From the NCBI GenBank assembly GCA_020847495.1, contig JADLCA010000463.1:1-49796 (forward strand): 49,796 nt of DNA. The letters run 5' to 3'. Below are positions 7,737 to 49,796 of this stretch, in pieces. The stretch is from Candidatus Hydrogenedentota bacterium (GTDB lineage: Bacteria > Hydrogenedentota > Hydrogenedentia > Hydrogenedentales > SLHB01). The position numbers and the translations under genes are program-made. Numbering within the stretch: the stretch's first letter is position 1; every line of letters starts with the position of its first letter. Under the pieces are notes generated by a model. The model was not told the DNA's origin. It did no database searches and saw nothing but the letters and a program-made list of their open reading frames with translations.

Positions 7737-7737
7737 C

Positions 7738-9936: not shown

Positions 9937-9944
9937 GAGTACTC

Positions 9945-31857: not shown

Positions 31858-32185
31858 TTGTGCGCTTCCTCTTCTGTCCGATCCGAATTACCTTGACCCC
31901 GCCTGCCATTGCCCCGATTACTTCCGCCCCGGTTTCGGCGGTGTCTTGCTTTTGCGCTTGCTGTACTCTTACGTCGAACAAGAAGTCTTGAACGCTGTAC
32001 TCCGGGCCGCCCCACAGCCGCGCCAGCAACGACACATGCAGTGTGAGTTGAGCCATGTAATACTCCATGCGACGCAACGGGAGCAATTTCGCATGACGGT
32101 ACAAATACCACTGTTCGAACTCAGCTACTGGCATCTCCCGTTCGAGCTGAGTGACTGTCTTACCAAGCGCCAGCGCCAGTTCCAT
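31850..32185 (-). CDS. tail assembly chaperone T-segment (expressed as a G-T fusion, 31850..32550, by -1 frameshift)
   Basis: This frame is -1 relative to gene 32206..32550. It stays open upstream across the slippery site. Confidence 0.6.
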   Translation of the reverse strand: MELALALGKTVTQLEREMPVAEFEQWYLYRHAKLLPLRRMEYYMAQLTLHVSLLARLWGGPEYSVQDFLFDVRVQQAQKQDTAETGAEVIGAMAGGVKVIRIGQKRKRTNG

Positions 32186-32205
32186 CTTGAATTCCTGGCG
32201 CGGGG

Positions 32206-32550
32206 TCAGTTTGGGTTGATGGCCCCCTTTGCGTCGTGACCGTCAGCGGCATTGACGATCGCATGGAACACCGTCTCCGGCTGGCGGGCCAACAACGCAA
32301 TCAACCGCTCCTGGACGTCCAGCGGGAACCGCTTGCCTTGCTCGTCGCACAGCAGCCGCGCCACCGACGGTGCGAAGAACCCGTTGGGGGAATCAGCATT
32401 CGCTTCGCGCACGGTTGCCATTTGCTCGAATTCCAGCACCGTACGCTTACGAACGTACAGCGTACCGACACCGGGAACGGCGACCGCGATGGGCCGCTCC
32501 ACAGTGCCGGCGTTGACTTCCAACTGCTTCAACAGTTCTTCGATATCCAT
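32206..32550 (-). CDS. tail assembly chaperone (gpG-like)
   Basis: 114 aa. It lies between the major tail protein and the tape measure genes. A slippery heptamer sits 6 codons before its stop. Confidence 0.7.
   Translation of the reverse strand: MDIEELLKQLEVNAGTVERPIAVAVPGVGTLYVRKRTVLEFEQMATVREANADSPNGFFAPSVARLLCDEQGKRFPLDVQERLIALLARQPETVFHAIVNAADGHDAKGAINPN
32224..32230 (-). promoter_or_regulatory. -1 programmed ribosomal frameshift slippery heptamer A_AAG_GGG
   Basis: The minus strand reads GC A AAG GGG GCC in the G frame. The -1 frame continues ...RKGGHQPKLTPRQEFKMEL... into ORF 31850..32185. Confidence 0.6.
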
Positions 32551-32585
32551 GGCGATGCCTCCCGTGGGCTACGATGTTATTGTGA

Positions 32586-33242
32586 TTACAGCACGAAGAT
32601 CGGGCCAGTCAGCTTAATCGTCGCCGAGCCGGACCACACACCGTTCACCTGACCGGACACGCTCTGCTGTTGCACCGTGCCGATCATGATCAGCGTGCCG
32701 CCGCTGCCGGGGAACGTGATCTTGAACGCCAGTTGCGTACCGGCGACCTTGGCGGTGCGCAGGGCGGTCTGCACGGTGGAGTTCGGAGCCGCGTTGTAGT
32801 CCAGTTGCAGCGTGCCCGAGTCCGACAACCCTTGCTCGAATTCCTTGGCCGTCGAGCAGATGGTCGTGACTTCGATCTGATCCGCCGCACCGTCTTGCTG
32901 GTTGGCCCCGGTCAGTTCGCAGAAGTTCGAAAAGTCGACCTCCTGGATGATGCCGCCGCTGGTGTACGCATCCGCTTCCGTGGTGTCTTCGCCGGCCAGT
33001 TCGAACGACGTACCCGCGACGACACCGTCAGCGACGTACAGGTTGTCGTTCAGGTTGGTCATGCCGGCCACCCCGGAGATCTTGACGACGCTGCCGTCGA
33101 CGAGCGGATGGCCGGTGACGGTCACGACCGCCGGATCGGCTTGCGTGATGGCCGTGATGTTGTTCACCGGGCTGGTGCCCAGGAACCCCGTTTGCACCTG
33201 GAATTGCGAACCGTTGAATTTGTACCGCAGACCTTGGGACAT
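32586..33242 (-). CDS. major tail (tube) protein
   Basis: 218 aa, beta-rich. It lies immediately upstream of the chaperone pair. An internal segment, AVVTVTGHPLVDGSVVKISGVAGMTNLNDNLYV, resembles an inserted small beta domain. Confidence 0.75.
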   Translation of the reverse strand: MSQGLRYKFNGSQFQVQTGFLGTSPVNNITAITQADPAVVTVTGHPLVDGSVVKISGVAGMTNLNDNLYVADGVVAGTSFELAGEDTTEADAYTSGGIIQEVDFSNFCELTGANQQDGAADQIEVTTICSTAKEFEQGLSDSGTLQLDYNAAPNSTVQTALRTAKVAGTQLAFKITFPGSGGTLIMIGTVQQQSVSGQVNGVWSGSATIKLTGPIFVL

Positions 33243-33275
33243 GACTTGCTCCTTACGTTGAAATTGCGAGGGAGA

Positions 33276-33683
33276 TTACGGACTGCCTGCCGGGGTAGAA
33301 CCGTAGAACGTGTAACGCAAAATACCGCGATAAGTTTTGGTTTCTTCGTCGTACTCTTCCTGGTAGAAATCCCGCGTGCAGGGCGGGTCAGTAACTTCCA
33401 GAACTGCAACCACAGACGTGACCAATGACTTCATCGCGCCGTACGTGCGCGCAACTACGTCGATCTGCACCGTAGTGTCGTCTGTGTCCTCGTCATCGGT
33501 GCCGTCGATGGTAGGCGGGTTGACCGCTCCGATCTGCTGGTAACGAATCGCCGGCCATGTCGGGTAATTGAGACTCCCAGTGCTGGTAGACGGCGGGTTG
33601 ATCAGCTCCTGCGGGAATTGATTGGGGTAGCAGCGTCCGTTGACCAGAGTCTGCAGAGCGGTATATATCACGCCGCTGATCAT
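33276..33683 (-). CDS. DUF3168-type tail completion / tail terminator protein
   Basis: 135 aa. Its position between the gp10-like and tube protein genes fits. The N-terminal pattern is typical of the family. Confidence 0.6.
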   Translation of the reverse strand: MISGVIYTALQTLVNGRCYPNQFPQELINPPSTSTGSLNYPTWPAIRYQQIGAVNPPTIDGTDDEDTDDTTVQIDVVARTYGAMKSLVTSVVAVLEVTDPPCTRDFYQEEYDEETKTYRGILRYTFYGSTPAGSP

Positions 33684-34162
33684 GGCCGCACCTTCGCCCG
33701 TTGAAAAATACGTTCTTCCAACTTGGCCTTCATAGCATCCGTGACCTTCTGTAAATTCTCGCTCAACGCAGGCTCGATAAACGGTCGTGCGGGTTGCTTG
33801 ACCGTACCGAGCTCGTTAAACTTCCAATAGAAGGTGGGCGGGTCCATCAGATACTTCTTGCCAGCGCGCCCTTTGCGTACGTTCTCACGAGTGTTGGCGT
33901 ACACGCCGAACACCTTGAACACACTCACTGCACGTACTTCAAAGCCGGGTCGGCTGTTGACTTTGTCGCGCAGGCTTTCGATGGACTTCTTCAGCTTGCC
34001 GCTTTTGACCGGAGCGTTGCGTCGAGCCGCCAACACGATCACCCGCGCACCGGCAGTGACCGCTTGCCGGACCGCCTTTTTCTGCATGTCTTCACGCATG
34101 CCCGCCAGCGCAACCCCAAGCGGTTGCAGCCCTGTGACCTTGAACGAGAGCCCCTTAGCCAT
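33680..34162 (-). CDS. HK97 gp10-family head-tail joining protein
   Basis: Start at 34162. Contains ...APVKSGKLKKSI...TVKQPARPFIEPAL. Confidence 0.7.
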   Translation of the reverse strand: MAKGLSFKVTGLQPLGVALAGMREDMQKKAVRQAVTAGARVIVLAARRNAPVKSGKLKKSIESLRDKVNSRPGFEVRAVSVFKVFGVYANTRENVRKGRAGKKYLMDPPTFYWKFNELGTVKQPARPFIEPALSENLQKVTDAMKAKLEERIFQRAKVRP

Positions 34163-34496
34163 CGTTGACCCCACTCTTGGCCATGATCTCGACTTCGCGT
34201 TGCTCCAGGTACAAATGGGCGACGCTAACAAAGTTAAAGATCGAACCTTGGTGCTCGCCGCGGTGAGCGGTCGTGATCTGGCTGGTAATGTCGTTCCAAC
34301 GTACCTTGATACGCGTATCCATTTCGCCAGCAATCTGGTCGCCCAACAAGCGTTCCCGGCCGCGCATCGGTTCGATGGATGCCCACACGGCGCCGATGGT
34401 CGTCCAGGTGGGCACCAGTTCGCCGGTCGTCCCATCCTGCGCCATGACTGGCGCTTGGATGTTCAGACGATGCCGCTTGGCGCCGATCTGCATCAC
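34155..34496 (-). CDS. head-tail adaptor / head closure protein (SPP1 gp16 / HK97 gp9-like)
   Basis: RHRLNIQAPV...DGTTGELVPTW...VWASIEPMRGRE pattern. Confidence 0.7.
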   Translation of the reverse strand: MMQIGAKRHRLNIQAPVMAQDGTTGELVPTWTTIGAVWASIEPMRGRERLLGDQIAGEMDTRIKVRWNDITSQITTAHRGEHQGSIFNFVSVAHLYLEQREVEIMAKSGVNDG

Positions 34497-35209
34497 GCCA
34501 TCCCGCGTCGGAAGCGCTCCGGGTACAGCAACGCTTTGACGCCCATCTCGATTTCTCGAGGAAGTTGGCTCAGCGTCTCGGTGTTGGATCTGTTCTCGTA
34601 GAAGTGAGTGAGCAACAGCAAGATCGCGGCCGTGTACGTGGCGGGCATGCCGAGTTCAAACGGACTGGCTCCGTCCGCATCGTAACCTGCATTGAATCGA
34701 ATACGAACAGCATTGGGGCGGTCATAAGTCGCGGGCCAACCGGAACCAGGAGCCGGGAACAACCGCCCTTCGTCGGTGTATGGATCGAACGCGTACCCGG
34801 TCGGGCTACCACTCAAGTCAACATCTAGGTTATTGGCATCGGCATAGATCACCGAATTGATCGAGCGGGCGGGGCCGATTGGGAACCGGATGTAATCGTA
34901 TTGCGAAGAGTACAGCGCAACCGGATAGTCAGAGTACCCCCGCACTGGGAAGCAGCGCAAAGTGAGTTCGTATTCTTGGTATGCGAGCGCTCGCCCCGAG
35001 AGCACTTCGCAATGCTGTCTTGCGGCCGGCAGGTAGACCGATTGAATCAGATTGTCATCCGGGTGGGACAACGGACTGCCATAGAGGTCAAGCCGCAGAT
35101 GATTGCGGGCAGTCTCCAGCGTGATCGGTTCCGCCGCAGAACCGAGCGGGCGCGCGCTATGCCGTAGCAGTGCTTCTCTGTACCACGAAGGCGTCGAATA
35201 TGTAGGCAT
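34493..35209 (-). CDS. gp6-like head-tail connector (QLRG family) protein
   Basis: ITLETARNHLRLD opening motif. Position is at the head of the connector genes. Confidence 0.65.
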   Translation of the reverse strand: MPTYSTPSWYREALLRHSARPLGSAAEPITLETARNHLRLDLYGSPLSHPDDNLIQSVYLPAARQHCEVLSGRALAYQEYELTLRCFPVRGYSDYPVALYSSQYDYIRFPIGPARSINSVIYADANNLDVDLSGSPTGYAFDPYTDEGRLFPAPGSGWPATYDRPNAVRIRFNAGYDADGASPFELGMPATYTAAILLLLTHFYENRSNTETLSQLPREIEMGVKALLYPERFRRGMA

Positions 35210-35237
35210 TTCTCACCTGCGGGGCTGGATGGGTGAC

Positions 35238-35267
35238 ATTATACCGGCTGAGTTCTATTGAAAGCAA
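35238..35267 (-). promoter_or_regulatory. sigma70-like promoter candidate, TTGCTT-N18-TATAAT
   Basis: On the minus strand the -35 TTGCTT is at 35267-35262 and a perfect -10 TATAAT is at 35243-35238. It lies in the 66-bp gap between the island and the connector gene. Confidence 0.4.
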
Positions 35268-35275
35268 CTCGTAAA

Positions 35276-35959
35276 TTACTGGGCGTACTGCTCACATGCT
35301 CGATACCACAGATCAGCATGTTCGCAATCAGGCAACAACTCCGGAGTGCCGAGCGTATAGTGAGCAATCGCCGGGTTGGCCGGTTTCGGCTGCATGCCGA
35401 CCAGCCAGTTCCAATCCATCGGGAGTTCGCCAATCTCGTCATCATGCAGCCAGCCGAAAGCGTGCAGGTCGCGCCCCGGCCAACTGTTCAACGTGGTGAT
35501 GTTGAGTCGCCGATTGGCCGGATGATCAACGTTCCACAGAGTCACTGCTGACCAGAGTTTGCGAGGGTAGGCTGTCTGCACCTGCCCGTCCATCTTCTTG
35601 CCACCTACGTTGCCGACATCGTGCTTGACCACTTGCACCGCGTAACGCGAATCAGCCAACTGCATGAGTTCTTGGGCATCTCGCAAGAATACCATATCGC
35701 AGTCGGTGAAGAGTGCCCATCCAGTATGTGCGAGCAACGGCGTAAAGAATCGTGCAACCGCGAACGAGGTAGCTTGCGGCGCGTTGCTGACTAAGTCCCA
35801 CATCTGGCCGCGTCGATCTAACGGACGAGTCAGCAGCCCACTCGTACGTAGTGCATGCTCGTACAATGGCAACGGGGCAAAGCCATGAGCTCGCGCGGTC
35901 CCCATCGCGACGTCGAAGCTGCGTTGCTCCCTGTCTTCGTGCCCGATGTAAACCCGCAT
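35276..35959 (-). CDS. GT-A fold glycosyltransferase (GT8-like)
   Basis: N-terminal VYIGHEDREQRSFDV. DxD motif LFTDCDMVFL. It resembles the small phage-type nucleotide-sugar transferases. Confidence 0.65.
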   Translation of the reverse strand: MRVYIGHEDREQRSFDVAMGTARAHGFAPLPLYEHALRTSGLLTRPLDRRGQMWDLVSNAPQATSFAVARFFTPLLAHTGWALFTDCDMVFLRDAQELMQLADSRYAVQVVKHDVGNVGGKKMDGQVQTAYPRKLWSAVTLWNVDHPANRRLNITTLNSWPGRDLHAFGWLHDDEIGELPMDWNWLVGMQPKPANPAIAHYTLGTPELLPDCEHADLWYRACEQYAQ

Positions 35960-35960
35960 G

Positions 35961-36161
35961 TCAGTCCACCACGTAAATGTAGGGAAAATTGTCTTTGCCG
36001 CCTACCCGACGACAACAGGCGCCGCGTGCATGCACCGCGCCCGTCTTGCCGTACCACCGAGCTTCTCGAGCCTTGATCTGGCCTTTGCACACGACGCACC
36101 GCGCTTCACCGGGGCCACCATGCAGCACCGTCGCTTCCAGCTTGTCTTTCAGTGGATCCAT
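35961..36161 (-). CDS. small Cys-containing protein (66 aa)
   Basis: The ATG at 36161 lies 2 nt after the radical-SAM stop. Its stop lies 1 nt before the GT start. Contains CVVC...ACC. Confidence 0.4.
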   Translation of the reverse strand: MDPLKDKLEATVLHGGPGEARCVVCKGQIKAREARWYGKTGAVHARGACCRRVGGKDNFPYIYVVD

Positions 36162-36163
36162 GG

Positions 36164-37114
36164 CTAACTGTAAGCCACGCATTCTTCGCACGGCGTGCCG
36201 CTCACGTCTTTCCGCAGATGTGCCTCACGCAGCGCCGCGAACTCAAGGCTGTGCCACGCTTCCATGAACGTTTGTTGATTGAGATCACCCATGCGCCACC
36301 GGCCGTCTGCATCGAAGCAGCACGCGGAAAGATAGCCGTCTGCCGTAACGTGCCCTTCGGTAAAGGCGCTCCAGCACGGCAGCGGTTCACGCAACGCGCC
36401 GAGCCGTCCTTGATTGCCGGCAGTCGGCTTATAACCGAGTTCGGCTTCACGTTGCGTAGCGAGCGACCCCATGCTGTAAAGCGGCAACCAGTAGTGTTCG
36501 TCCACGTAGGGGCGCACCCGCTCGCTGAGCAGTGCTTCCATCGCGACCTGCTGCGCGCCGTCGTACTTGATGCTGCTGGCGTAAATACCACACTTGAACT
36601 TGCCGGCCGCACGGACTTCGCGTGCTCGCTTGATGGCGTCCAGTGCGTCCTCATACAACCGCGCCTTGACCCCCATCACATCAACGAATTGCTCCGGGGT
36701 TGCGGCGTTGACGCTGAACTTGAGCGAGTCCAGCCCTGCTGCCATGACTGCTGCCAGCCGGTCCCACGTACACAGGCTCCCATTCGTCGTCAAGAATACG
36801 TATGGGAACCCAATCTTCTTGCACCACGAGATCGCGCGCACCAGCAGGTCCGGCGCCATGAACGATTCGCCGAGGTAGAACACGCCGATCTCCTCGACCC
36901 CGGCATCGCGCATCTGCTGCGTCATGCGCATAAACAGATCGAAGTCCATGTCGCCGGTCGGCTGCTCCTTGCGCGTGCGCAAGGCGCAGAACCCGCAACG
37001 GTAATTGCACCGGCCGGTCAGTTCGATCTTCACCGACTTGGGCGCAGGCGGACGCGCGGAATAACGGTCTGCTGTCACCAGTGTGATTGCATCGATGCGT
37101 TGCGTAATGGTCAT
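36164..37114 (-). CDS. radical SAM enzyme with a SPASM/twitch-like Cys-rich C-terminus
   Basis: Cluster motif CNYRCGFC. GGE-like motif YLGESF. C-terminal cysteines CWSAF...ACCFD...PCEEC. The start at 37114 overlaps the upstream stop. Confidence 0.9.
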   Translation of the reverse strand: MTITQRIDAITLVTADRYSARPPAPKSVKIELTGRCNYRCGFCALRTRKEQPTGDMDFDLFMRMTQQMRDAGVEEIGVFYLGESFMAPDLLVRAISWCKKIGFPYVFLTTNGSLCTWDRLAAVMAAGLDSLKFSVNAATPEQFVDVMGVKARLYEDALDAIKRAREVRAAGKFKCGIYASSIKYDGAQQVAMEALLSERVRPYVDEHYWLPLYSMGSLATQREAELGYKPTAGNQGRLGALREPLPCWSAFTEGHVTADGYLSACCFDADGRWRMGDLNQQTFMEAWHSLEFAALREAHLRKDVSGTPCEECVAYS

Positions 37115-37332
37115 GAGGTTAGCCGTCCGTCCAGTAGCAGGGAAAACGCACATCCGAGTTCTTGGCATGCCGAAAGCAGTTCGGCTCGAACACATGCACC
37201 GCCCCGTCCACGCCGTACGCGCGCGACTCGTACGCCGGAATCGTCTGCCCACACTCGATCGATGCAACGCACAGCCTTCGGGCCAGCGTACAACTTGCGC
37301 AGTTGCTCGGCGATAACGGGGTCCGCGATCAT
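37111..37332 (-). CDS. small ORF (73 aa) bridging the methyltransferase and radical SAM genes; frame uncertain
   Basis: ATGA overlaps at both ends. Codon bias looks coding only in the first half. A different frame looks coding in the second half (see findings). Confidence 0.3.
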   Translation of the reverse strand: MIADPVIAEQLRKLYAGPKAVRCIDRVWADDSGVRVARVRRGRGGACVRAELLSACQELGCAFSLLLDGRLTS

Positions 37333-37988
37333 CTCGGCACCATCACGTAGTCACCGCTCATCTTCTCCACGCAGCGGTAGCCGAACTCCTTCGTCAGCCA
37401 CTCCACCGCACCGAGTTCCGGCAAGCCGAACTGCTGCCCGCGCCCCGGTTTCTGCTCCACGCAGATCACCGGCAGGTCGCGATTGATGATACGCGCCGCG
37501 CCCTTCAACGCAAACAGTTCATACCCCTCGCAGTCCAGCTTAATGAAGTCCACGTCTTGCACCTGCCCGAACGTATCAAGCATACACAGCGGGATGTCGC
37601 CCGCGCCGCCCACGCGGGAGTCACCGGAAGAAGTCGGCGCAGTCACGATGGACACGCGCCCTTCGTGATCACCGAGCGCGCAGGCGTGGAGCGTCAGGTC
37701 GTGACCGGCGCTCATGCCGGCGAGGTTCGCCTGCCAGCACTCGCGGTGCGCGGCGACAGGCTCGAACGCATGGACACAGCGAAACCGCTTGAGCAGTTGC
37801 ATCGTCCATAGCCCGACGTGCGCGCCCACGTCGACCGCGGTGCGGAAGTCCTTGACGTGTGCCAGCGCGGCGCGCAGTTTCTTGATCTGGTAAGTGCCAC
37901 GCCCGTCGACCATTTCGCCATTCTTGGTCATCCACTCGGTCAGATGTGTTTCGCCGTCGGGAAGCCAGATGCCTTGATGCTTAATCAC
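37329..37988 (-). CDS. FkbM-family SAM-dependent methyltransferase
   Basis: GGAGGA RBS, then GTG at 37988, which overlaps the upstream TGA. Motifs are VDVGAHVG, VHAFEP and VDFIKLDCEGYE. Confidence 0.85.
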   Translation of the reverse strand: MIKHQGIWLPDGETHLTEWMTKNGEMVDGRGTYQIKKLRAALAHVKDFRTAVDVGAHVGLWTMQLLKRFRCVHAFEPVAAHRECWQANLAGMSAGHDLTLHACALGDHEGRVSIVTAPTSSGDSRVGGAGDIPLCMLDTFGQVQDVDFIKLDCEGYELFALKGAARIINRDLPVICVEQKPGRGQQFGLPELGAVEWLTKEFGYRCVEKMSGDYVMVPR

Positions 37989-38743
37989 TTGTTCAATTCC
38001 TCCATGATTGCCGAGCGAACTTCTTCTATAGTGATTGCATCCATAGACGCCTTGCACGAAGCGCACGGCATCCGTGATCCGCACACTGCTGTGGTCTTAC
38101 GGATATTGCGTTGGCTTGCGTATCCGGTGTACGCAGGGGCGATGAACTCGGACCAGAGCACGATAGCCCGCGTGCCGAGCGCCGCTGCGGCATGGTGCAG
38201 CGCCCCTTCCGCGCCAACAAAAAGACGCGCACTGGCGAGCACGCCGAATGCTTGGCGCACCGTGGTCGGGACAAAGCGCACGCCTTGCAAACGACGCGTA
38301 TCCGGAACGCCGATCTGCACCCAATGCACGTCCAGCGAGCACACGAGTTCCTGCCAGCGCTCGAACGGCCACGCCTTGTTACCGTCCAGCGCTTTGGTGT
38401 TCGGCTCGATCACGACCGCACCCGCACTGATCACAGCGCCTTGCGCGTGCTCCTCGTGTGTGAGATATAGCTCTCCCGGCTGGATGTTCCATGTTTGCCA
38501 AAACCAGCGCTTATCGGTCTTGGATCGAATATATGGACGCGACCCACCCGCATTGACTAACCGCACCAAGTTTACCATCTCACGTGGGGTGACTTCATGC
38601 GGCTTCGCGATGCGCGGGTTGTTGTCGAACGCGTCGGACCAACGCAGCCGCCCCATGCGGTCGATAACGGCCACCTTCTTCCCGGTGCGCTCATTCAGTT
38701 CCCGCACCTGCGCCGTCGCCATGATCCAGTCACCGAGGCCCAT
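37985..38743 (-). CDS. GT9-family (heptosyltransferase-like) glycosyltransferase
   Basis: GGAGGA RBS, then ATG at 38743 (TAATG overlap). N-terminal GLGDWIMAT. C-terminal LFVGAEGALHHAAAALGTRAIVLW. Confidence 0.7.
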   Translation of the reverse strand: MGLGDWIMATAQVRELNERTGKKVAVIDRMGRLRWSDAFDNNPRIAKPHEVTPREMVNLVRLVNAGGSRPYIRSKTDKRWFWQTWNIQPGELYLTHEEHAQGAVISAGAVVIEPNTKALDGNKAWPFERWQELVCSLDVHWVQIGVPDTRRLQGVRFVPTTVRQAFGVLASARLFVGAEGALHHAAAALGTRAIVLWSEFIAPAYTGYASQRNIRKTTAVCGSRMPCASCKASMDAITIEEVRSAIMEELNK

Positions 38744-39264
38744 TACAGCGTTTCCTCCAACGACAGCATCCCGCGATAGGAGCACTTCGCCGCGTACACG
38801 CCGAACAGCGTTTGCCACCATTCGATCGGGCGGACGGTAACGTGCAGGTTCGTGATGCCGTCTGGAAAAAATTTCTTGGCAGGGCGACAGCAGATCGACG
38901 CCCAGAGGAACAAGCGACTGTGCGTCATCATGTAGATGATCGCATCCTCCAGTTCGTGCTCCGGGATGTGCTCCATTACGTCAGAGCAGACAATGCCGTC
39001 GAACTCCTCGTTCGGGCGCGTGGCCAACGCTGGGATCGCGGGATCGTACAGACGCGGCTTCGGCACCTTCCACCGCTGGTGCAGGAAGTAGGGCGCGTCG
39101 TACGCGACGCCAGCACCGGAACCGTAATCGAGCAATGTCACCGCGCCGCTGCGCTTGATCATACCTTGCACGCTGCGCGCGTGGATCAGCAACGACAGCC
39201 CACGAAAGTTCTCGCCTTCCGCCGTCATCTGCCGATACGCGTTGACCAACTTACCCTCGGGCAT
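38743..39264 (-). CDS. class I SAM-dependent methyltransferase
   Basis: Motif I LLDYGSGAG. DGIVCSDVMEHI. The start is at 39264, with an alternative at 39285. Confidence 0.8.
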   Translation of the reverse strand: MPEGKLVNAYRQMTAEGENFRGLSLLIHARSVQGMIKRSGAVTLLDYGSGAGVAYDAPYFLHQRWKVPKPRLYDPAIPALATRPNEEFDGIVCSDVMEHIPEHELEDAIIYMMTHSRLFLWASICCRPAKKFFPDGITNLHVTVRPIEWWQTLFGVYAAKCSYRGMLSLEETL

Positions 39265-39808
39265 AGTATCCGATCCACTCGTCATAGGTTCCGTGCACTA
39301 CGTCGACTAATGACAGCCCAGCATCACGCATCGCCACGCCGATGTCGTGAGGCACATAGCCGGACCGCTCGTCCCGGATCACTTCACCCGATGCCGGGAG
39401 TCGCACCACGCACAGGCTTTTGGTGACTGCGCCGAAGCGATGTGCGGCTGCGCTCGGGTCCTTGAGCTTGTGCAGGATCGCAAGCAACAGCACGACATCA
39501 AAGCCACCGTACGGCGTGCAATCAGTCGGGTCCCACACATTCGCATCGGCATGGAATAAAGCCAGCGGCAACCGCTCTTGATCACGCAACGTTCGTGCGA
39601 CATCCAGATGCGCAGCCACCCGCTCGACCCCGACCGCTTCGCGTGCGCCCGCGCGCAAGAACTCCATGGCGATCAAACCTTCAGCACACCCAACATCGAG
39701 TACGACGCCACCTTTGGCAGCGACAACAGCAGATTCGAGTCCCACCATCTGCTGCTCCAGTGTGCGGTCGCCCCCGCGCCCCGGCGTGCTGAACCAACCT
39801 TTGCTCAT
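39251..39808 (-). CDS. class I SAM-dependent methyltransferase
   Basis: Motif I VLDVGCAEG. FDVVLLLAILHKL. The ATG at 39808 overlaps the upstream stop. Confidence 0.8.
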   Translation of the reverse strand: MSKGWFSTPGRGGDRTLEQQMVGLESAVVAAKGGVVLDVGCAEGLIAMEFLRAGAREAVGVERVAAHLDVARTLRDQERLPLALFHADANVWDPTDCTPYGGFDVVLLLAILHKLKDPSAAAHRFGAVTKSLCVVRLPASGEVIRDERSGYVPHDIGVAMRDAGLSLVDVVHGTYDEWIGYYARG

Positions 39809-40614
39809 GCCGACTGCTCCTGCTGCTGTTGCAAGTCCGCCCAGCATTGGCCGTAACGCATTTCGTCTAGTGTCCATTGGTTGTCGGCGAGTACATGGAA
39901 CAACTGCTCTCGCGCAGGGTCGGGGGCCAGATGCGGTTCTTCCAAATCATCGAACAACGACGCGCAAGGCGATGCTGCGCAAAGCTGACTACAGAACACC
40001 GGGATACCGTGATGCAGCGCCGTGATCGCCGCAGCCGATGAGTGCGTGATCAAGGCGTGCGCGTCGAGCAAGTCCTGCTCCAGTGTTGCGGCAAGTGCAC
40101 CCTTATCCGGAGACCAATCGCGCAAACAAACCGGAAGCGATGTAACACGGTTCAGCCGTCGGATCGTATCGCGACACCAATCACCAGGGTACTTCACGAT
40201 GTTACGCATGAAGTGATCCGACTGCGGGCAAACGACAATGTGCTCCCCCTGCGCGCGCCACGGCCGAATCGGCGACAGGTTCAGCGTGCGGTAACGTGCA
40301 CCATTTGAAGTTCGATCACGGCGCACGTATTGCAGACCGTTGCTGGTCACACGGAAGTAGTGCTGCCTGGTCGCGTCAAAGTAACTGTTGTCGCAGTAAT
40401 AGAACGGGGCGCCTCCGTGCGCGGCTCGCTTCACGGCCGCATCATACAGGTGCTGGTTCGAGGCGTCGACACCGTAGAAAAACGCGGGAACGCCCGGCGT
40501 CAACCCAGCCAAACCCGCCCCCTTCTGCATGACGACCCCGCCGCAACCCTCGACGAACGCACGGCAAATCTCCAGCGACTTCGCCTTGCCGGCCACCGGA
40601 TAAGCGATCACCAT
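39805..40614 (-). CDS. putative GT-B-like glycosyltransferase, paralogue A
   Basis: GGGAGA RBS, then ATG at 40614. Contains HIVVCPQS..., LEQDLLDAHALITHSSAAAITALHHGIPVF and QWTLDEM. It shares these blocks with the upstream gene. Confidence 0.45.
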   Translation of the reverse strand: MVIAYPVAGKAKSLEICRAFVEGCGGVVMQKGAGLAGLTPGVPAFFYGVDASNQHLYDAAVKRAAHGGAPFYYCDNSYFDATRQHYFRVTSNGLQYVRRDRTSNGARYRTLNLSPIRPWRAQGEHIVVCPQSDHFMRNIVKYPGDWCRDTIRRLNRVTSLPVCLRDWSPDKGALAATLEQDLLDAHALITHSSAAAITALHHGIPVFCSQLCAASPCASLFDDLEEPHLAPDPAREQLFHVLADNQWTLDEMRYGQCWADLQQQQEQSA

Positions 40615-41414
40615 TGGATTCTCCCCGCGCGGGCAGCATCGCGGAACAGCACGAACGGCTCGCCGCTCGCGAGTTCGTCCACGGTCCACTGCGCCCACGC
40701 CATGTCCTCCAATGCCTGCTGTCGCGCGCCGTCGTTGCGGAGCACGGACTGCTCACCGTCGCGCCCCGGCTTCAACCGCGTGGCGGCATGTTCGCAAATC
40801 CAATGCGGCGCGTCGTACACGACCGGAATGCCGCGCAGCAACGCCTTGACCCCGGACGTGGACGACCACACTACACACAATTTCGCATTCGTAAGGTCTT
40901 GCTCCAGCGTCGGTGCTTTAGGGTCGGGCTTGTTGCCGGGGTGCACACGCACGCGGGCCGGTTGCGGACTGCGCTTGGCCGCACCTACGTGCCAGTTGGG
41001 AGGAGACGCCATGCTACGGGAGCCAATCCCTCTCTGCCCGCACACCAGCGCGTGCCCGTCCGGCCGGGACACCCACGGCGCGGGCGTCAGCCCAAGCGCG
41101 GCAAAGCGTTCCGGTCCGCCGCGCGGCCACCATCCGCTGCCATTGTGTCCGTGCGCCGCAAGGGCGTAACGCTGCCGCCCTTGATCATCGCCGCCAATGT
41201 AACCGTTCTCAGCAACGAGAACCGTGCCTCCGTGCGCTTCCCACGCATCGGCCATCTGCTCATTGGCACCATAGCGGTTCCAGATCACGAGAAGATCGTC
41301 CGACTTGCGCGCACCGCCGCGATCTGTGACGGCGTAACCCGCACGTTGCAACCCGGTGACAAAGGCATCACGTCGGTAGTGCGGTTGGTCGCGAATCAGG
41401 CAGATGGCGGTCAT
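40608..41414 (-). CDS. putative GT-B-like glycosyltransferase, paralogue B
   Basis: Contains HALVCGQRG..., LEQDLTNAKLCVVWSSTSGVKALLRGIPVV and QWTVDEL. ATGA overlap with the upstream gene. Confidence 0.45.
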   Translation of the reverse strand: MTAICLIRDQPHYRRDAFVTGLQRAGYAVTDRGGARKSDDLLVIWNRYGANEQMADAWEAHGGTVLVAENGYIGGDDQGRQRYALAAHGHNGSGWWPRGGPERFAALGLTPAPWVSRPDGHALVCGQRGIGSRSMASPPNWHVGAAKRSPQPARVRVHPGNKPDPKAPTLEQDLTNAKLCVVWSSTSGVKALLRGIPVVYDAPHWICEHAATRLKPGRDGEQSVLRNDGARQQALEDMAWAQWTVDELASGEPFVLFRDAARAGRIQW

Positions 41415-42211
41415 GCCGTGCCTCCCAGCGCGGGCGACAGGTCGGCACGCGGAAACACCGCATCAGGGATCGCAGTGCCCGGCGAGCAGTTGACGATGCG
41501 CACGCCTTCGTCGCGCAGGTCCTTGGCGAGCGCTGCAAAATGTTCAATCCAACGCGCGTGAGGCAGACTTGCCTTGAGCGGGGTCGGATGGTCACCGTGC
41601 CAGTGCGTACCCTTGCAGTCATAGCCGAGCAGCACGAAGTCCCGCACGCCTGCATGGAACGCGAGGTTGATCGACTGGAAACCCGACGACATCCCTTGGT
41701 GGATCAACCCCGGCTTGCGCGACAATCCGCGCGCCCCGACACTCGCAATGTGGCCGAGGCCGTACTTCTGCGCGGCCGGCTTGTCTTGCGTAAACAGCAG
41801 CGTGGTCGGCGCAACCGTCGCAATGACTTCCTCGTAATACGTGTCCCACCACTTCGTGTCGCACGCATAGAGCATGTCCGCAAACGGCGCACGACGGAAG
41901 CTAGTATTGATTGCGATCACGCGGTTGTGTGGCGTCTGCCCCCACCATGCCGCAACTTGCACGCACTGATCTTCGGTCAGGCTCGGCCCGCCCGCGATGA
42001 TCACAGCACGGCAACCCGTCCAATTCGGGAACGTCGTGCGCGAGAACGTAAGCGACGGTGCCTGCTCCTGCGCAACCAGCACCGTCTCGGCCGGGCGCGC
42101 GAAGCCCTGTGCGAGCAACTGCGCGCGGTACTCCGGATTGTATTCGTAGAACGACTGCCCCGGTGCGATCTGAATCGAACCGGGGATGTTCTTCAACGCG
42201 ACCAGCAACAT
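41411..42211 (-). CDS. DUF115 / MptE-like (Maf-type glycosyltransferase-like) protein
   Basis: GGAGGAGCC RBS, then ATG at 42211. Contains AVIIAGGPSL...RVIAINTSF...ADMLYACD...GFQSINLAFHAGVRDFVLLGYD. Confidence 0.45.
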   Translation of the reverse strand: MLLVALKNIPGSIQIAPGQSFYEYNPEYRAQLLAQGFARPAETVLVAQEQAPSLTFSRTTFPNWTGCRAVIIAGGPSLTEDQCVQVAAWWGQTPHNRVIAINTSFRRAPFADMLYACDTKWWDTYYEEVIATVAPTTLLFTQDKPAAQKYGLGHIASVGARGLSRKPGLIHQGMSSGFQSINLAFHAGVRDFVLLGYDCKGTHWHGDHPTPLKASLPHARWIEHFAALAKDLRDEGVRIVNCSPGTAIPDAVFPRADLSPALGGTA

Positions 42212-42237
42212 GGCTCCTCCCAGAGCTGTGAATGCGT

Positions 42238-43449
42238 CTACTTCAACGACACGCGCGGCGGCTCGCGCTTCTCCTGTGATGCGTCGCGCCCATCGCGCCC
42301 ATGCTTGACCGAGAGTCGCCATGCGTCCGACGTCCCCGGCTTGTCCTGCGTATTGTCTTGCGCAATCCACATCGAACCGCCGGAACTGACCACGTCACCT
42401 TGCGCGTATGCCGTACCGTCCTTCCAGACACCTTGATCGAGCAGTGCTGGGACCACAAGCGGGACGGCCTTCGTTTCGTTCGTAAGCGCAAGCGCCAACT
42501 GGAACGTACGAGCATCGATTTGCGCCACATCGATTCCAGCGACGCCAGCAACGACGCATTCCCAGCCAGAGTCGACCATACCCGCACGCTGCTCCTCGAA
42601 CGTCGGCAACGGCTCCATCGGATCGGTCGTGCGCGCAGCGCGCCACAACCCGCCGCCGAAACGCAGCCACGTGCCCTTCGGGTACACGCGCCCGACCTGC
42701 GCCGAATCATGCACAACGAGGTCGAGCGCATCCTTTCCGTCCATGCCATCACGACCAGCAGGACCCGGCTTGCCGTCGCGGCCGTCGCGGCCGTCACGGC
42801 CATCTGTGCCGTTGTTGCCGTCCTTGCCATCGACGCCATCGCGGCCGTCCTTGCCGTCGACACCGTCCTTGCCGTCGACACCGTCCTTGCCATGCACCGG
42901 CTCTGGCACCATGATTTCGATGCGCTTGACCTCTTCCTCAACCTGTGCTGCGAGCAACGAATGGAAACGACCGCCGCCCAGCATTGCGTCAAGCTCAAGC
43001 GCGATCAAGGACCGCGCCTCCTCGGTCGGGAGGAACCCGCCTTGCTCGCCCTTTTCGCCACGTTCACCTTGCGCGCCGGGAGCACCGTCCATGCCGCGCT
43101 CGCCTTGCGGGCCGGGAGCACCGTCCATGCCGCGTTCACCCTTCTCGCCGCGCTCGCCGATATCTCCCTTCTCGCCTTGCGGGCCGGGGGCGCCATCCAC
43201 GCCGCGCTCGCCTTGCGGGCCGGGTTCGCGCGCCAGCGCGATCAACCGAGTGTCGACATCAATAGTGCGCGCGGCTGCGGCATCCAGAAGCGTTGACAAC
43301 CCCTGCATTTGCGATTGCAACGCCAACAGATCCTTGGTAAACTGTGCAGCTAACGCTTCCAGTTGATCGTGTGCGCGCTGCTCCGCCGCTTTGACCTGCG
43401 CAAAGATCATTTGCGCAAGCTCCTCGACAACTTGATCCAGCTTGTTCAT
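42238..43449 (-). CDS. collagen-like protein with an N-terminal coiled coil and a C-terminal beta-rich (possibly carbohydrate-binding) domain
   Basis: Two uninterrupted GXY blocks of 20 and 18 triplets. C-terminal region is ...WKDGTAYAQGDVVSSGGSMWIAQDNT.... AAGGAAG RBS. Confidence 0.85.
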   Translation of the reverse strand: MNKLDQVVEELAQMIFAQVKAAEQRAHDQLEALAAQFTKDLLALQSQMQGLSTLLDAAAARTIDVDTRLIALAREPGPQGERGVDGAPGPQGEKGDIGERGEKGERGMDGAPGPQGERGMDGAPGAQGERGEKGEQGGFLPTEEARSLIALELDAMLGGGRFHSLLAAQVEEEVKRIEIMVPEPVHGKDGVDGKDGVDGKDGRDGVDGKDGNNGTDGRDGRDGRDGKPGPAGRDGMDGKDALDLVVHDSAQVGRVYPKGTWLRFGGGLWRAARTTDPMEPLPTFEEQRAGMVDSGWECVVAGVAGIDVAQIDARTFQLALALTNETKAVPLVVPALLDQGVWKDGTAYAQGDVVSSGGSMWIAQDNTQDKPGTSDAWRLSVKHGRDGRDASQEKREPPRVSLK

Positions 43450-43461
43450 CGCGCGGCTTCC

Positions 43462-43829
43462 TTATGACAACAGTCCCGCCGCAAGCATGCCAGCGGCGCA
43501 CATCAATAGAAACTCGTCCTCGTCCAAAAGTTGCACGAACGTCGGCAGCACGATGCGGTACTGTGGCTGTGCGAAAGCGTTGAGCGGAGGCTCGACCGTA
43601 AGCGTAATAGACGGCCCCCACCAGTCGCTGCCGTATTGCGCCGCTCCGAACCACGGCGAACACCACCACTGCTGCGGCCCGCCGGACCCTGCGGGCCAAC
43701 GTCTCCCTTCTCCCCCACGAGTCCACGCGGACCCGGAGGTCCGAGGTCGCCACGCGGACCCTGCGGGCCACGCGGACCAGGATCGCCGTCTTTCCCATCG
43801 AGACCATCGCGTCCGTCACGCCCGGACAT
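43462..43829 (-). CDS. small collagen-like protein, apparently requiring a -1 frameshift near 43674-43680 (or a pseudogene or sequencing error)
   Basis: Frame A from the ATG at 43829 encodes 16 perfect GXY triplets. Coding-like sequence then continues only in the -1 frame ([35 protein letters not shown]...AAGLLS). That frame stops at 43462-43464, just before the RBS of the next gene. Confidence 0.5.
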
Positions 43830-45213
43830 CGCTCACCCCGAATCGCTCTTGCAGCTTGCTCCGAAGCGACAGCATCAACGCGCGCACTTGCTCCTCGGCA
43901 GTGTCTTCGTCGTCATCTACTGGCGGAGCGGGCAAAGCGGGCGACGGAGCGGCAAGCGGGTTCGTCGCGTCGCGCGCAGCCAGCGCCGCCAGTGAGTAGT
44001 TCTGCTGTTGCAGGTATGGTGTCTCGCCACCCTTGACCGGCGGCAGATTCTCGCGCAACCGCGCCTCGTTCGGCGCGAGCACGCCGGCGCCCACTTGCTT
44101 CTGCGCCACGTCGGCACGCGTCGCCGGATCCATACGCAGCAATCCTTCCAGATCGAATTCGACACTGTATACGTGATCTTTGACGCCGTACAAATTCAAG
44201 CCATCGTCCAGCAACGCTTCGATCGCTTCGATGTGCGTCTGCAAAGTCTGCGTATAGTAATCCTGGTTCATCGCAGACACGTTGTTGAATGTCGGGTTGG
44301 CGCCACTCGCGATCTTGTGCAGCGGTACACGAAAGCAGCGCGCCACGTCTTCCACAGTCCAGCGCAGTTGCTCGATCAGTTGAGCGTCGGTAGCCGGGAT
44401 GACCATCGGTTGGTACTTCATATCATCGCCGGTGACTAGCAATCGTCCGATGCGCCCGCCGGAAAAGTTGGCTTCGAAATCTTCTTTAAGACGTCGGGCG
44501 GTGTCGTCACTGATCGAACCGGGTGCAGTCAGTTGGCCGCTCGGCCGCGACATGTTCTCAAAGAACACAACACTATTGTGCTGGATGCGGATGCCTTGCG
44601 TGGCTGCTACGCCGCATGCAAAGATTGGAGATACGCCGACCAGCGGGTGGAATAGTGTCAGCCCGCGATCATGGATCACTTCGCTGGCAGGCAGTGTGAT
44701 GTCCAACGGTTGCTGTGACAGTTTGTCCGCGCGGATCTGATAAAACACTTCGCCGTTGTCCGCTACCAGCGGGGTCACCATACGCGAGTCCAACACGTAT
44801 AGCGCGGTGACAACTCCGCGTTTGTCACGCTCCTTGACCACGTACGTGTTGCCGTACAGCATCTTCATCGTAAGCCACGAGATGATGAACTGCAACATCG
44901 TCTGGTAATGATTTGGCTTGCGCAGTACCGGCGCGAACGGAGTATTGCGCGTGACTTCTTGCCAGTAGCCGCCGTTGATCTGCTCCATGATCCGCAACCG
45001 CAGCTTGGCTACGTCTTCTGCGATCAACGACACACAGGCGAACACTGCGGAGAACGCCAGCAGGTTCTCCTTCTTGTCGGGGGTGATGTTTTTCTGCCAT
45101 GCGCCAGCGAACGGTTCGCGAATCGCACTGGAGAACCATCCCCAGTAATTCGGACTCGCCGCTTGAAGTTCTTTGCGGAACGGCCACGTGAGCTCGTACC
45201 CGAACAAATTCAT
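43816..45213 (-). CDS. portal protein (HK97 family)
   Basis: 465 aa. Typical HK97-portal blocks ...[21 protein letters not shown]...GNTY... and [16 protein letters not shown]. Confidence 0.9.
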
Positions 45214-45296
45214 GGCTTGGCCCGCAGGTCCCGTCGGTTGTAGTAGGCGCGTTCCAGCTTCTGCCGGCGTTGTTGTTCTTGGTCGCGGGCGAGTAA

Positions 45297-45328
45297 AACC
45301 CGGTCGAGGTATGACCCCCGACCGGGTT
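45297..45328 (-). terminator. perfect 10-bp hairpin downstream of the capsid gene (possible leaky terminator or attenuator)
   Basis: The minus strand reads AACCCGGTCG, 12-nt loop, CGACCGGGTT, then TTAC. The T-tract is weak. Confidence 0.4.
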
Positions 45329-45375
45329 GTGCGCGACGTTGCTTGCGCTGCTTCACGACGTCACGCTACGCCAGA

Positions 45376-47322: not shown

Positions 47323-47331
47323 GGCTGCCTC

Positions 47332-49062: not shown

Positions 49063-49432
49063 TGTCGCGCTTGACTGCAGAAACCTTGGAGCGGGCTGAC
49101 GGCGTCATGCCCAGTCGGTCCAGGCCGGAGTACAGCTTGCCGATGAGGTTAGGGTGGACATCACCCTGCTTGGCCCGGAACTTGCAGAGCAGCACCGCCA
49201 CCATCTCGACGATCGATTGGTCCGCGATGGTCAGGACATCCTTGTGGCAGATTCGAATGATGTACGAGTACACTTCCTTCTGGGGTTCCGTCATCCAGTC
49301 GGGAGGGTCGGGCGGCAGAGGGTCGGTGTTCTGTGGCTCGTTCTCACGCCCTTGGCGGGCGAAGCGGCCGGGGTTGGCCTTGTGTGTTCCATGCAGTATT
49401 GCGACTTTGGTCGGTAGTCTCGCTCTGGCCAT
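49025..49432 (-). CDS. terS: terminase small subunit (P27 family-like)
   Basis: TAGGAG RBS, then ATG at 49432. About 135 aa, directly upstream of and overlapping terL. Typical ...AILHGTHKANP... opening. Confidence 0.75.
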   Translation of the reverse strand: MARARLPTKVAILHGTHKANPGRFARQGRENEPQNTDPLPPDPPDWMTEPQKEVYSYIIRICHKDVLTIADQSIVEMVAVLLCKFRAKQGDVHPNLIGKLYSGLDRLGMTPSARSKVSAVKRDNGKQNPLSEFAA

Positions 49433-49573
49433 GTTGTGATCTCCTATGATTGAAAAACTCCGTTCACTGTGACCCCTACCCTGTGATCCACATTCGTTGC
49501 CGCGTGTAAAAAGGCCCGCGCCCGGTTTACGCCGGGGCATGGAAAAATTGTTCCATAACCCCCCGGTTATATA

Positions 49574-49601
49574 ACTATATAGCTATGCGCGTATATGCCA
49601 A
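49574..49601 (-). promoter_or_regulatory. sigma70-like promoter candidate, TTGGCA-N16-TATAGT, in an AT-rich patch upstream of terS
   Basis: On the minus strand the -35 is at 49601-49596 and the -10 is at 49579-49574. The local AT-rich stretch 49567-49597 stands out in GC-rich DNA. Confidence 0.3.
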
Positions 49602-49670
49602 CGGCATTGACACAATGCGGCAAGCATACCGCGTGCCAGCGCTAGGCGCAAGCTACATTGGCATGGGCTT

Positions 49671-49796
49671 TGCTTTACGCGTGCGCGCGTAGCACATTGC
49701 GTGCCAATGGGCTTTGGCATGGCGCTTGCTTTACGCGTGCGCGCGTAGCACATTGCGTGCCAATGGGCTTTGGCATGGCGCTTGCTTTACGCGTGC
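49671..49796. repeat. 56-bp direct tandem repeat, at least 2.2 copies, running off the right edge of the window
   Basis: tgctttacgcgtgcgcgcgtagcacattgcgtgccaatgggctttggcatggcgct starts at 49671, 49727 and 49783. Copies 2 and 3 match each other. Copy 1 has a divergent 5' flank. Confidence 0.85.

Follow-up and report, generated by a model that had tools for sequence, protein, structure and literature searches.

A virion morphogenesis operon interrupted by eleven genes for transferases, methyltransferases and a radical S-adenosylmethionine (radical-SAM) enzyme raises the question of what product these enzymes make, and on which acceptor it is placed. Such a block is found on contig JADLCA010000463.1, and the window, i.e. 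the whole stretch of 49,796 nucleotides analysed here, is a phage contig with a G+C content of ~60%. The block, hereafter the island, consists of 11 co-directional open reading frames (ORFs A to K) on the minus strand at 35276-42211, between a collagen-like gene and a head-tail adaptor gene. As judged from the protein families, the proposal of a glycan-assembly and methylation cassette with five transferase-like proteins, three methyltransferases and one radical-SAM enzyme is supported. Among its possible targets we place virion proteins ahead of the host glycolipid or lipopolysaccharide (LPS), and both ahead of DNA.

The phage carrying the island is uncultivated and most likely infects Gram-negative bacteria. 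The closest deposited phages share a capsid identity of only ~45%, and a search of 50,697 phage records for near-identical copies of the island was negative; the phage is therefore new at the DNA level.

Gene content and enzyme families of the island

The late operon of the window, on the minus strand, encodes the large terminase subunit (TerL), a protease-major capsid protein fusion, the portal, a 403-aa collagen-like protein, the island, and then the head-tail adaptor, neck, tail terminator, tail tube and tape measure proteins. Within the island (Table 1), start and stop codons overlap as ATGA at 41411-14, 39805-08, 37329-32 and 37111-14, as GTGA at 37985-88 and as TAATG at 38741-45, and at all other junctions the ORFs overlap or lie at most 1 nt apart; its borders are 26 nt from the collagen-like gene and 66 nt from the adaptor gene. 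Independent metagenome gene calls on identical contigs match the 11 ORFs, and the G+C content by codon position is coding-like in all of them except H, where this signal is weak. A scan for promoter- and terminator-like sites over 32000-49796 returned hits at chance level only. The 66 nt that separate K from the adaptor gene (35210-35275) include a TTGCTT-18 nt-TATAAT sequence with a perfect -10 and a weak -35 element, a site that the promoter scan did not flag. No island protein contains a hydrophobic segment of transmembrane grade (maximum 19-residue hydropathy <=1.5), and the Pfam and NCBIfam scans of the island gave no match to flippase, polymerase, ligase or initiating phosphotransferase families. 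Nucleotide-sugar synthesis genes are absent from the window.

Table 1. Coordinates of the island genes and of associated features in the window; the last column gives the number of loci, among the 80 B-seeded loci defined in the text, in which the gene is present.
Feature	Positions	Strand	Product	Supporting match or remark	Loci of 80
A	41411..42211	-	DUF115/Maf- and GT42-like transferase, 266 aa	phrog_4603 7e-38; candidate initiating or ulosonic-acid transferase	
B	40608..41414	-	Kdo-transferase-fold protein, 268 aa	No Pfam family; AF2 model and profile	
C	39805..40614	-	Divergent paralogue of B, ~268 aa	Start ATG 40614 or GTG 40611	67
D	39251..39808	-	Class I SAM methyltransferase, 185 aa	Methyltransf_25 5e-9, above cut-off	53
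E	38743..39285	-	Second methyltransferase, 180 aa (173 aa from ATG 39264)	phrog_24759 'methyltransferase' 3e-18	34
F	37985..38743	-	Short GT9 (heptosyltransferase-like), 252 aa	Glyco_transf_9 6.5e-8, above cut-off	52
G	37329..37988	-	FkbM methyltransferase, 219 aa	Methyltransf_21 5e-13; TIGR01444 2e-19	58
H	37111..37332	-	73-aa ORF of doubtful coding status, lineage-specific	ATGA overlaps on both sides	
I	36164..37114	-	Radical-SAM enzyme with twitch-like or partial SPASM C-terminal domain, 316 aa	Radical_SAM 3e-18; SPASM 2e-11	
J	35961..36182	-	Small Cys-rich protein, 73 aa	Precedes K	
K	35276..35959	-	GT-A, GT8-like nucleotide-sugar transferase, 227 aa	phrog_28018 1e-41	53
Collagen-like protein, 403 aa (upstream boundary)	42238..43449	-	Candidate acceptor	Pfam Collagen 1e-19; CBM_5_12 8e-5 at the C-terminal end	
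Head-tail adaptor (downstream boundary)	34493..35209	-	Adaptor	phrog_442, phrog_40	
Early module	7738-11464	+	Amino acid:DNA transferase PF18724, 5-hydroxymethyl-dU (5-hmdU) DNA kinase PF18723, thymidylate-synthase homologue, HD phosphohydrolase	Beside PolA/SNF2	

The AlphaFold (AF2) model of B, with a predicted local distance difference test score (pLDDT) of 95, retrieved KpsC, KrkA and WbbB as the top 28 matches in a Foldseek search of the PDB (E 5e-6 to 1e-3, template modelling (TM) score ~0.5), and nothing but these three proteins at E<=1e-3; the family profile of B likewise matches KpsC at 1e-3. In the viral structure library, Tetraselmis virus 1 proteins named 'capsule polysaccharide biosynthesis' (TM 0.7) and a CcrColossus protein are matched by the model. 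The PDB search gave no match to T4 beta-GT-like DNA transferases. B shares with KpsC (glycosyltransferase (GT) family GT107), WbbB (GT99) and KrkA (GT140) the overall modified GT-B fold, the HP motif and the Gln of QXXXD, as these motifs are defined for the three enzymes (PMC12887879). His158-Pro159 of B aligns with the CMP-binding HP motif of KpsC and is near-invariant among B orthologues, and the carboxylate-binding Gln is kept as Gln127. A conserved acidic position, E69 of the 'ENGY' motif, is Glu in B-type sequences and, with exceptions, mostly Asp in those of the C type. C is a paralogue with 30% identity to B (E 8e-14), and its family displays weak matches to DUF6716 in 10 of 20 members and to Capsule_synth in 2 of 20. 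The HP motif is not kept in C, and the nucleophilic Asp is also missing, with Q-S-D-H-F at the QXXXD site. As tandem paralogues B and C resemble the two domains of KpsC, and in one relative a synthetase for CMP-activated 3-deoxy-D-manno-octulosonate (CMP-Kdo) is a neighbour. They differ from the three characterised enzymes in the lost Asp (Gly in B, absent in C), in the missing HP motif of C, in their shorter length (~268 aa), in a TM score of only ~0.5 and in being phage-encoded. Model and motifs thus indicate that B and C have the Kdo-transferase fold, yet are non-canonical members.

For A, F and K, single-sequence searches of the PDB were uninformative, and the signals come from family profiles only. 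The A profile matches C. jejuni CstII (GT42) at E ~1e-3 over ~150 residues and, weakly, Maf 5mu5 at E ~1, and A itself scores 17.8 bits against Pfam MptE-like (PF01973), under the cut-off of 34.6; its homologues occur in phages D3, PAJU2, P1 and CcrColossus. F exceeds the PF01075 cut-off (32.6 against 22 bits), and its profile matches WaaF/WaaC at ~1e-5, aligned over the ADP-heptose-binding C-terminal domain alone. At 252 aa, F is shorter than a full GT9 enzyme, in which two domains, the N-terminal one binding lipid A-Kdo, make up about 320-350 aa; in its C-terminal Cys cluster only C230 is invariant. K scores 14.2 bits against Pfam GT8 (PF01501), under the cut-off of 24.3, and contains a DxD-type motif, 'DCD'. 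Homologues of K in CcrColossus, Pelagibacter phage Mosig and other phages are annotated as nucleotide-diphospho-sugar or galT-like transferases.

Among the methyltransferases, G is above both thresholds (PF05050, 50 against 22.7 bits; TIGR01444, 70.4 against 37.7). E matches Methyltransf_23 at 1.7e-4, below the cut-off, and has no similarity to D; in the locus set seeded with the radical-SAM gene its cluster holds 39 ORFs with 27 distinct sequences. The third-codon-position G+C content of H is 0.57, as compared to 0.66-0.80 in its neighbours. H has no family match in Pfam, PHROG or NCBIfam, its homologues occur only on near-identical contigs, and it is missing from locus L160, where G abuts the radical-SAM gene. 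J, also with no family match, is present in one of the 80 B-seeded loci and is found with 70-72% identity directly upstream of K in loci L090 and L094.

The preliminary description of this DNA had proposed an 11-ORF island between the collagen-like and adaptor genes, chained by six start/stop overlaps into one translationally coupled unit of the late operon. The minus-strand ORFs are verified, with the metagenome calls in agreement, all six overlaps are present, and the coupling holds for the window. Its family calls for D, F, G and I stand above Pfam cut-offs, whereas those for A (DUF115/Maf), E (a second methyltransferase) and K (GT8) fall below them and draw their support from PHROG or profile matches. 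The paralogy of the 'GT-B-like' pair B/C was correctly recognised, and the fold can now be sharpened to that of Kdo transferases. A cassette for methylated oligosaccharide assembly, as had been suggested, is supported by the transferase, methyltransferase and radical-SAM families.

Distribution of the cassette and of its radical-SAM enzyme

Homologues of B number 881 among the metagenomic candidates scored, and were recovered in 193 IMG/VR loci and in 29 loci of representative genomes; the counts below refer to the best 80 of the 193 IMG/VR loci. The order A-B-C-D-(E)-F-G-K is kept in most of these 80 loci, and A is present in 71, adjoining B. About 45 of the copies lie within virion modules, with portal, collagen-like or adaptor genes beside them. 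The cassette borders on an adaptor homologue in 34 loci, and also in a Rhodospirillaceae prophage (L092), and a collagen-like gene stands immediately upstream in ~15. The loci in representative genomes are mainly proteobacterial, with prophages on 0.1-1.2 Mb contigs in Alphaproteobacteria and one isolate, Variovorax sp. JS1663. The prophage copies on large bacterial contigs are in virion modules as well. The cassette is probably also present in prophages of Beta- and Gammaproteobacteria, as represented mostly by metagenome-assembled genome (MAG) bins on short contigs and by the Variovorax isolate.

Cultured phages carry related sets. In CcrColossus, gp126-131 correspond to A, B, C, K, an E-like methyltransferase and F, in shorter and reordered form, past the tail genes and ahead of the lysis genes; other cultured Caulobacter phages carry the cassette too. 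The virion modules of the temperate Pseudomonas phages PAJU2 and D3, and of P1, contain A, either by itself or together with a methyltransferase. Gene content varies among the uncultivated relatives. L094 has the order A B C D E I F G J K, and in L090 D and E are replaced by FdtA, a DegT aminotransferase and another GT-A protein. The prophage L092 has a KdsB-like cytidylyltransferase (PF02348, CMP-Kdo synthetase) and a HAD hydrolase after B, together with two extra B/C paralogues, and in other relatives a GDP-mannose dehydratase and DegT (GDP-perosamine genes) are present. These additions of CMP-Kdo synthetase, FdtA/DegT or GDP-perosamine genes make glycan synthesis well supported. In L160 the cassette lies directly past SNF2 and converges on a DNA-ejection protein gene. 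Between PolA and SNF2 of this locus (6830-7819) there is a PAPS-reductase-like protein (phrog_424, 3e-67), which may represent another DNA-modification function.

The radical-SAM enzyme I is distributed differently. It is found in only one of the 80 B-seeded loci (L160, with the same G-I-K order) and is thus the unusual element of the window cassette within the cassette family. Its relatives are nevertheless abundant, with 86 in IMG/VR at 49-79% identity and thousands in metagenomes, and with no match at E<=1e-10 in the 50,697 deposited phage records. A second set of 88 loci, comprising 80 seeded with I and the contigs near-identical to the window, revealed that I is highly conserved across otherwise unrelated phage contigs, including loci L009-L088. 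Its constant partner is K: in 34 of 54 loci the two genes are at most 120 nt apart, with K on either side. Further frequent neighbours, in islands placed past the capsid gene or ahead of the terminase gene, are E, a tetratricopeptide-repeat (TPR) protein right after the capsid gene, a GDP-mannose 4,6-dehydratase, a DegT aminotransferase and a GT29-like protein.

The Radical_SAM and SPASM domains of I score 67 and 44.6 bits, each above its cut-off, and the invariant cysteines comprise the CX3CX2C triad (C36/C40/C43) together with C247, C265, C266, C309 and C312. These five conserved C-terminal cysteines fall short of the full seven-Cys SPASM motif with its two auxiliary clusters, and an N_Twi_rSAM domain is matched at 7e-7, so that by sequence the C-terminal domain looks like a single-cluster 'twitch' instead of a full SPASM domain. 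I has no NCBIfam equivalog. The Foldseek search was generic, with SuiB, SkfB, anSME and EpeE as structural neighbours and DesII, BtrN, viperin and MoaA equally close; since peptide-, sugar- and nucleotide-acting enzymes score alike, in sequence searches as well, no call of its substrate is possible. We infer that I tailors a sugar or the acceptor in a step coupled to K, of unspecified chemistry.

Two further arrangements of glycan islands were seen. On podovirus-like contigs (L013, L018, L020, L036, L057, L082-L085 and MW202512 (L089)) the gene after that of the capsid encodes a protein of ~470-530 aa whose N-terminal part consists of TPR repeats; it is the first gene of a different glycan island, the last neighbour of which is an SU10-type adaptor gene. 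The C-terminal half of the TPR protein is GT9-like by eye only, as Pfam makes no GT9 call and the family profile does not match F. A TPR domain joined to a transferase domain would be the layout of protein-directed glycosyltransferases. In L067-L075, L024, L026 and L031 an island just upstream of the terminase gene carries a GDP-mannose 4,6-dehydratase, DegT, a GT29-like protein, K and the radical-SAM gene; the dehydratase and DegT suggest a GDP-perosamine-like route. Profiles of the families c4 (TPR), c11 (sialyltransferase-like) and c6 and of the methyltransferases c44 and c65 from the radical-SAM-bearing loci, considered as orthologues of window proteins, gave no match to them, which makes those islands mosaic and not orthologous.

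The cassette is widespread, mobile and conserved in phages. It had been thought unusual for phages, a view that its spread, cultured Caulobacter phages included, overturns; the neighbourhood in related phages, which it had been suggested to examine, shows the ordered set in most of the 80 loci. Full-text literature searches found no description of the cassette, and its genes are annotated singly in GenBank phages; the preliminary description, too, was aware of no described phage system of this composition, and in CcrColossus the cassette had been present, unremarked. The cassette is apparently undescribed, and its enzyme families are new in the role of a phage-encoded glycosylation cluster. 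The lack of nucleotide-sugar genes is true of the window but not of the relatives, with their KdsB-like, FdtA/DegT and GDP-mannose dehydratase genes, and expression with the late genes does not extend to the family as a general property, in view of the copies at the end of replication operons. Nor can the collagen-like protein be the general acceptor, because most related cassettes have no neighbouring copy.

Candidate acceptors of the glycan

We tentatively favour, with somewhat less than even confidence, a cytoplasmic glycan-assembly cassette acting on virion proteins. The Kdo-transferase fold of B and C and the GT42-like profile of A suggest a chain resembling the LPS inner core or a capsule linker, made of ulosonic acid, heptose and hexose. 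Soluble enzymes would add these sugars singly onto the acceptor from host nucleotide sugars, with CMP-activated ulosonic acids such as CMP-Kdo as the most likely donors for A, B and C, ADP-heptose for F and UDP-hexose for K. D, E and G would O-methylate the product, and I, paired with K, would modify either a sugar or the acceptor through C-H chemistry. The assembly would do without lipid carrier, flippase and ligase. The sugars would be attached in the cytoplasm, during virion assembly, to at least one virion protein (capsid, collagen-like fibre or tail tube), a parallel to the mycobacteriophages Corndog and Che8, whose enzymes are unrelated. In its most specific form, namely that proteobacterial phages build a methylated Kdo/heptose/hexose oligosaccharide on their own virion proteins through an Asp-less branch of the Kdo fold, a subset of them with a phage-specific radical-SAM enzyme and GT-A protein, the proposal is possible but more doubtful.

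A virion acceptor is favoured by the ~45 copies in virion modules, by the prophage copies in late operons, which are presumably silent in lysogens, by the place of the CcrColossus cassette past the tail genes and by a cassette of Corndog in the same slot; in loci with the radical-SAM gene, the TPR protein (GT9-like by eye only) after the capsid gene also fits. The Corndog system is reported to glycosylate the capsid and the tail tube (PMC11600133, PMC12363180). Its gp35-38 are a TylF-type O-methyltransferase, gp36 with no family match, gp37 (GT2-like, below the cut-off) and gp38 (GT25). This cluster of glycosyltransferases and an O-methyltransferase lies directly after the portal gene, between portal and protease, matching the slot of the island, and it likewise combines several soluble glycosyltransferases, one of them of an LPS-type family (GT25), with a sugar-type O-methyltransferase. 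For Che8, the essential glycosyltransferase is gene 110 of ~112, which suggests a place for gp110 outside the virion module, akin to the two contexts of the present cassette. The two systems differ from the island in their actinobacterial hosts, in having 3-4 genes against 11 and in lacking ulosonic-acid-type, GT9 and radical-SAM parts; their glycosylation has been demonstrated experimentally, whereas that by the island is a proposal. A blastp comparison of the island proteins with Corndog gp35-38 gave no match below E 0.01. In the giant viruses (chlorovirus, mimivirus, Tetraselmis virus 1), virus-encoded cytoplasmic glycosyltransferases and methyltransferases also decorate virion proteins; the chlorovirus capsid glycans contain methylated sugars, the mimivirus fibrils are glycosylated, and Tetraselmis virus 1 encodes several proteins of the B fold. 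These viruses differ in their eukaryotic hosts and glycan chemistry, and share no gene order with the island.

Several observations weigh against a virion acceptor. In 18 of the 80 loci the cassette closes the replication operon, behind homologues of the PolA-SNF2 genes of the window, so that co-expression with virion genes is no rule, and in one of these, L164, it begins within the end of an integrase gene. The nearest characterised relatives of B/C, F and K act on glycolipids, namely lyso-phosphatidylglycerol-Kdo, O-antigen and lipid A core. B lacks the nucleophilic Asp, the sequence being Q127-R-G-I-G131 with KpsC Asp160 aligned to Gly131, which leaves its chemistry, and even its donor, uncertain, and the KdsB-like linkage is seen in one prophage only. 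The S/T-rich loop of the capsid is short, 3-5 residues longer than in relatives, and there is no clear Ser/Thr-rich acceptor tail. Such a tail was considered as a sign of a capsid acceptor and dropped, as the marginally longer loop is uninformative. The donors and the order of action are what we infer, and the acceptor is purely so.

Alternatively, the cassette could remodel a host glycolipid, either the LPS inner core at lipid A-Kdo or a Kdo-lipid, so that a methylated core masks receptors, with superinfection blocked or progeny kept off debris as conceivable benefits. Besides KpsC/WbbB/KrkA, the nearest relatives include WaaC/WaaF and, by a weak match, GT8 LPS enzymes, and lipid A-Kdo is universal in Proteobacteria, which would explain how one cassette accompanies unrelated virions in alpha-, beta- and gammaproteobacterial hosts; the integrase-end position in L164 is a classic site of conversion genes, and the 18 early-operon copies also fit. 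With the known seroconversion modules of the GtrABC type, phages change the LPS; these modules depend on membrane proteins and are expressed in lysogens. They are placed by the integrase, as is the cassette in L164, whereas the cassette is all soluble, with no membrane components, and is mostly in late operons. Most copies, those of true prophages included, are inside late virion operons and would be expressed shortly before lysis, 7-11 genes are a heavy investment as compared to known conversion modules, and B is without the catalytic Asp of the lipid-acting enzymes. We therefore consider a glycolipid target unlikely, though less so than the two alternatives that follow.

Phage DNA would be the acceptor if an oligosaccharide were placed on residual 5-hydroxymethyl-dU or on the hypermodified thymidine made by the early module. 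The plus-strand early genes of the window encode PolA, SNF2, an amino acid:DNA transferase, a 5-hmdU DNA kinase and a thymidylate-synthase homologue, and the window phage DNA probably carries hypermodified thymidine. Radical-SAM enzymes are part of some thymidine hypermodification pathways, which counts for DNA as the target. The 18 cassettes that follow PolA-SNF2 occupy the slot which in the window holds the thymidine-hypermodification genes, and phage glycosyltransferases related to LPS enzymes place Kdo, heptose and di- or trisaccharides on 5-hydroxymethylcytosine (5hmC) (bioRxiv 10.1101/2023.12.21.572611); slot and preprint together make DNA a real rival. Such DNA glycan clusters, like the island, use LPS-related glycosyltransferases and host Kdo, heptose or hexose donors to build oligosaccharides. 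They differ in that their glycosyltransferases lie beside the enzymes making 5hmC or 5-hydroxymethyluracil, whereas the window cassette is ~24 kb from the base-modification genes (7.7-10.9 kb, plus strand) and on the opposite strand. In none of the fetched loci does a homologue of the hydroxymethylase, kinase or transferase of the window lie at 10 kb or less from the cassette, and scans of sampled flanking ORFs of L164 and L160 gave no base-modification enzyme family. The occurrence of the cassette in integrated prophages and in an integrase-bearing phage, the A-family genes in virion modules of temperate phages D3, PAJU2 and P1, and the failure of B to match T4 beta-GT-like DNA transferases all argue in the same direction, and DNA is an improbable acceptor.

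An explanation confined to the radical-SAM gene is that it serves maturation of a ribosomally synthesized and post-translationally modified peptide (RiPP)-like product, or a viperin-like antiviral function, within the island, with H or J as substrate or partner. SPASM/twitch enzymes are often peptide-acting, SuiB, SkfB, anSME and EpeE are among the structural neighbours, two small ORFs flank I, and there are weak pVip matches, of which the PADLOC match to I reaches 40 bits over the core domain only. Against this, H and J occur in the 88 I-bearing loci only on contigs near-identical to the window, J in L090 and L094 precedes K instead of following I, and it is K, in the adjacency described above, that constantly accompanies the enzyme, with sugar-nucleotide genes as frequent neighbours. 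The NCBIfam viperin equivalog scores 37.4 bits against a cut-off of 180, and the sugar- and nucleotide-acting DesII, BtrN, viperin and MoaA are structurally as close. H and J were ruled out as peptide substrates, as they are not conserved with the enzyme, and reading the island as a defence system was rejected on the weak pVip match and the sub-threshold viperin score. A peptide or antiviral role of I thus appears quite unlikely, on a level with the DNA target.

Neighbouring loci and biological meaning

Additional features were recorded around the island. Directly past the portal stop, at 43466-43829 on the minus strand, lies a short collagen-like ORF (~50 aa of G-X-Y repeats) whose reading frame is then lost; if a single base were missing near 43680, it would continue into a protein-like C-terminal frame ending at 43466. 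The metagenome gene callers omitted this ORF, and L090 has a 621-aa collagen-like gene at that place. A decayed gene, an error of the assembly and a frameshift site are conceivable explanations. The C-terminus of phrog_2271 ('portal protein', 859 positions) matches the C-terminal domain of the collagen-like protein and its N-terminal part the window portal (43816-45213), so portal and collagen-like protein may be fused or mis-annotated in some phages. The tail tube protein (32586-33242) has an inserted domain scoring as E1_FCCH (PF16190, 2e-10) before the lambda-like tube domain. As regards the host, the contig was deposited within a 'Candidatus Hydrogenedentes' MAG, and related phage contigs were binned as Coxiellaceae, Nitrososphaerota, Methanoperedens, Anaerolineae and Clostridia; these assignments, that of the window included, are probably mis-binning, and the true hosts are most likely Proteobacteria.

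To our knowledge, phage-encoded virion glycosylation has so far been demonstrated only in mycobacteriophages, where virion glycans shield the particles from antibodies. If virion proteins are indeed the acceptors, virion glycosylation would extend to Gram-negative phages with wholly different enzymes, and we know of no earlier case in such phages and of no other protein-linked glycan of the Kdo type. It would also bring new enzymology, in the form of Asp-less Kdo-fold proteins, a truncated GT9 and a conserved radical-SAM enzyme paired with a GT-A protein. Should LPS or DNA be the target instead, the outcome would be core remodelling by a multi-gene system or a DNA glycan of a new kind. Since both CcrColossus and its host, Caulobacter crescentus, can be cultivated and manipulated genetically, the target is open to direct testing. 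In either event, the window adds a rare version bearing a radical-SAM enzyme to the glycosylation clusters encoded by phages.

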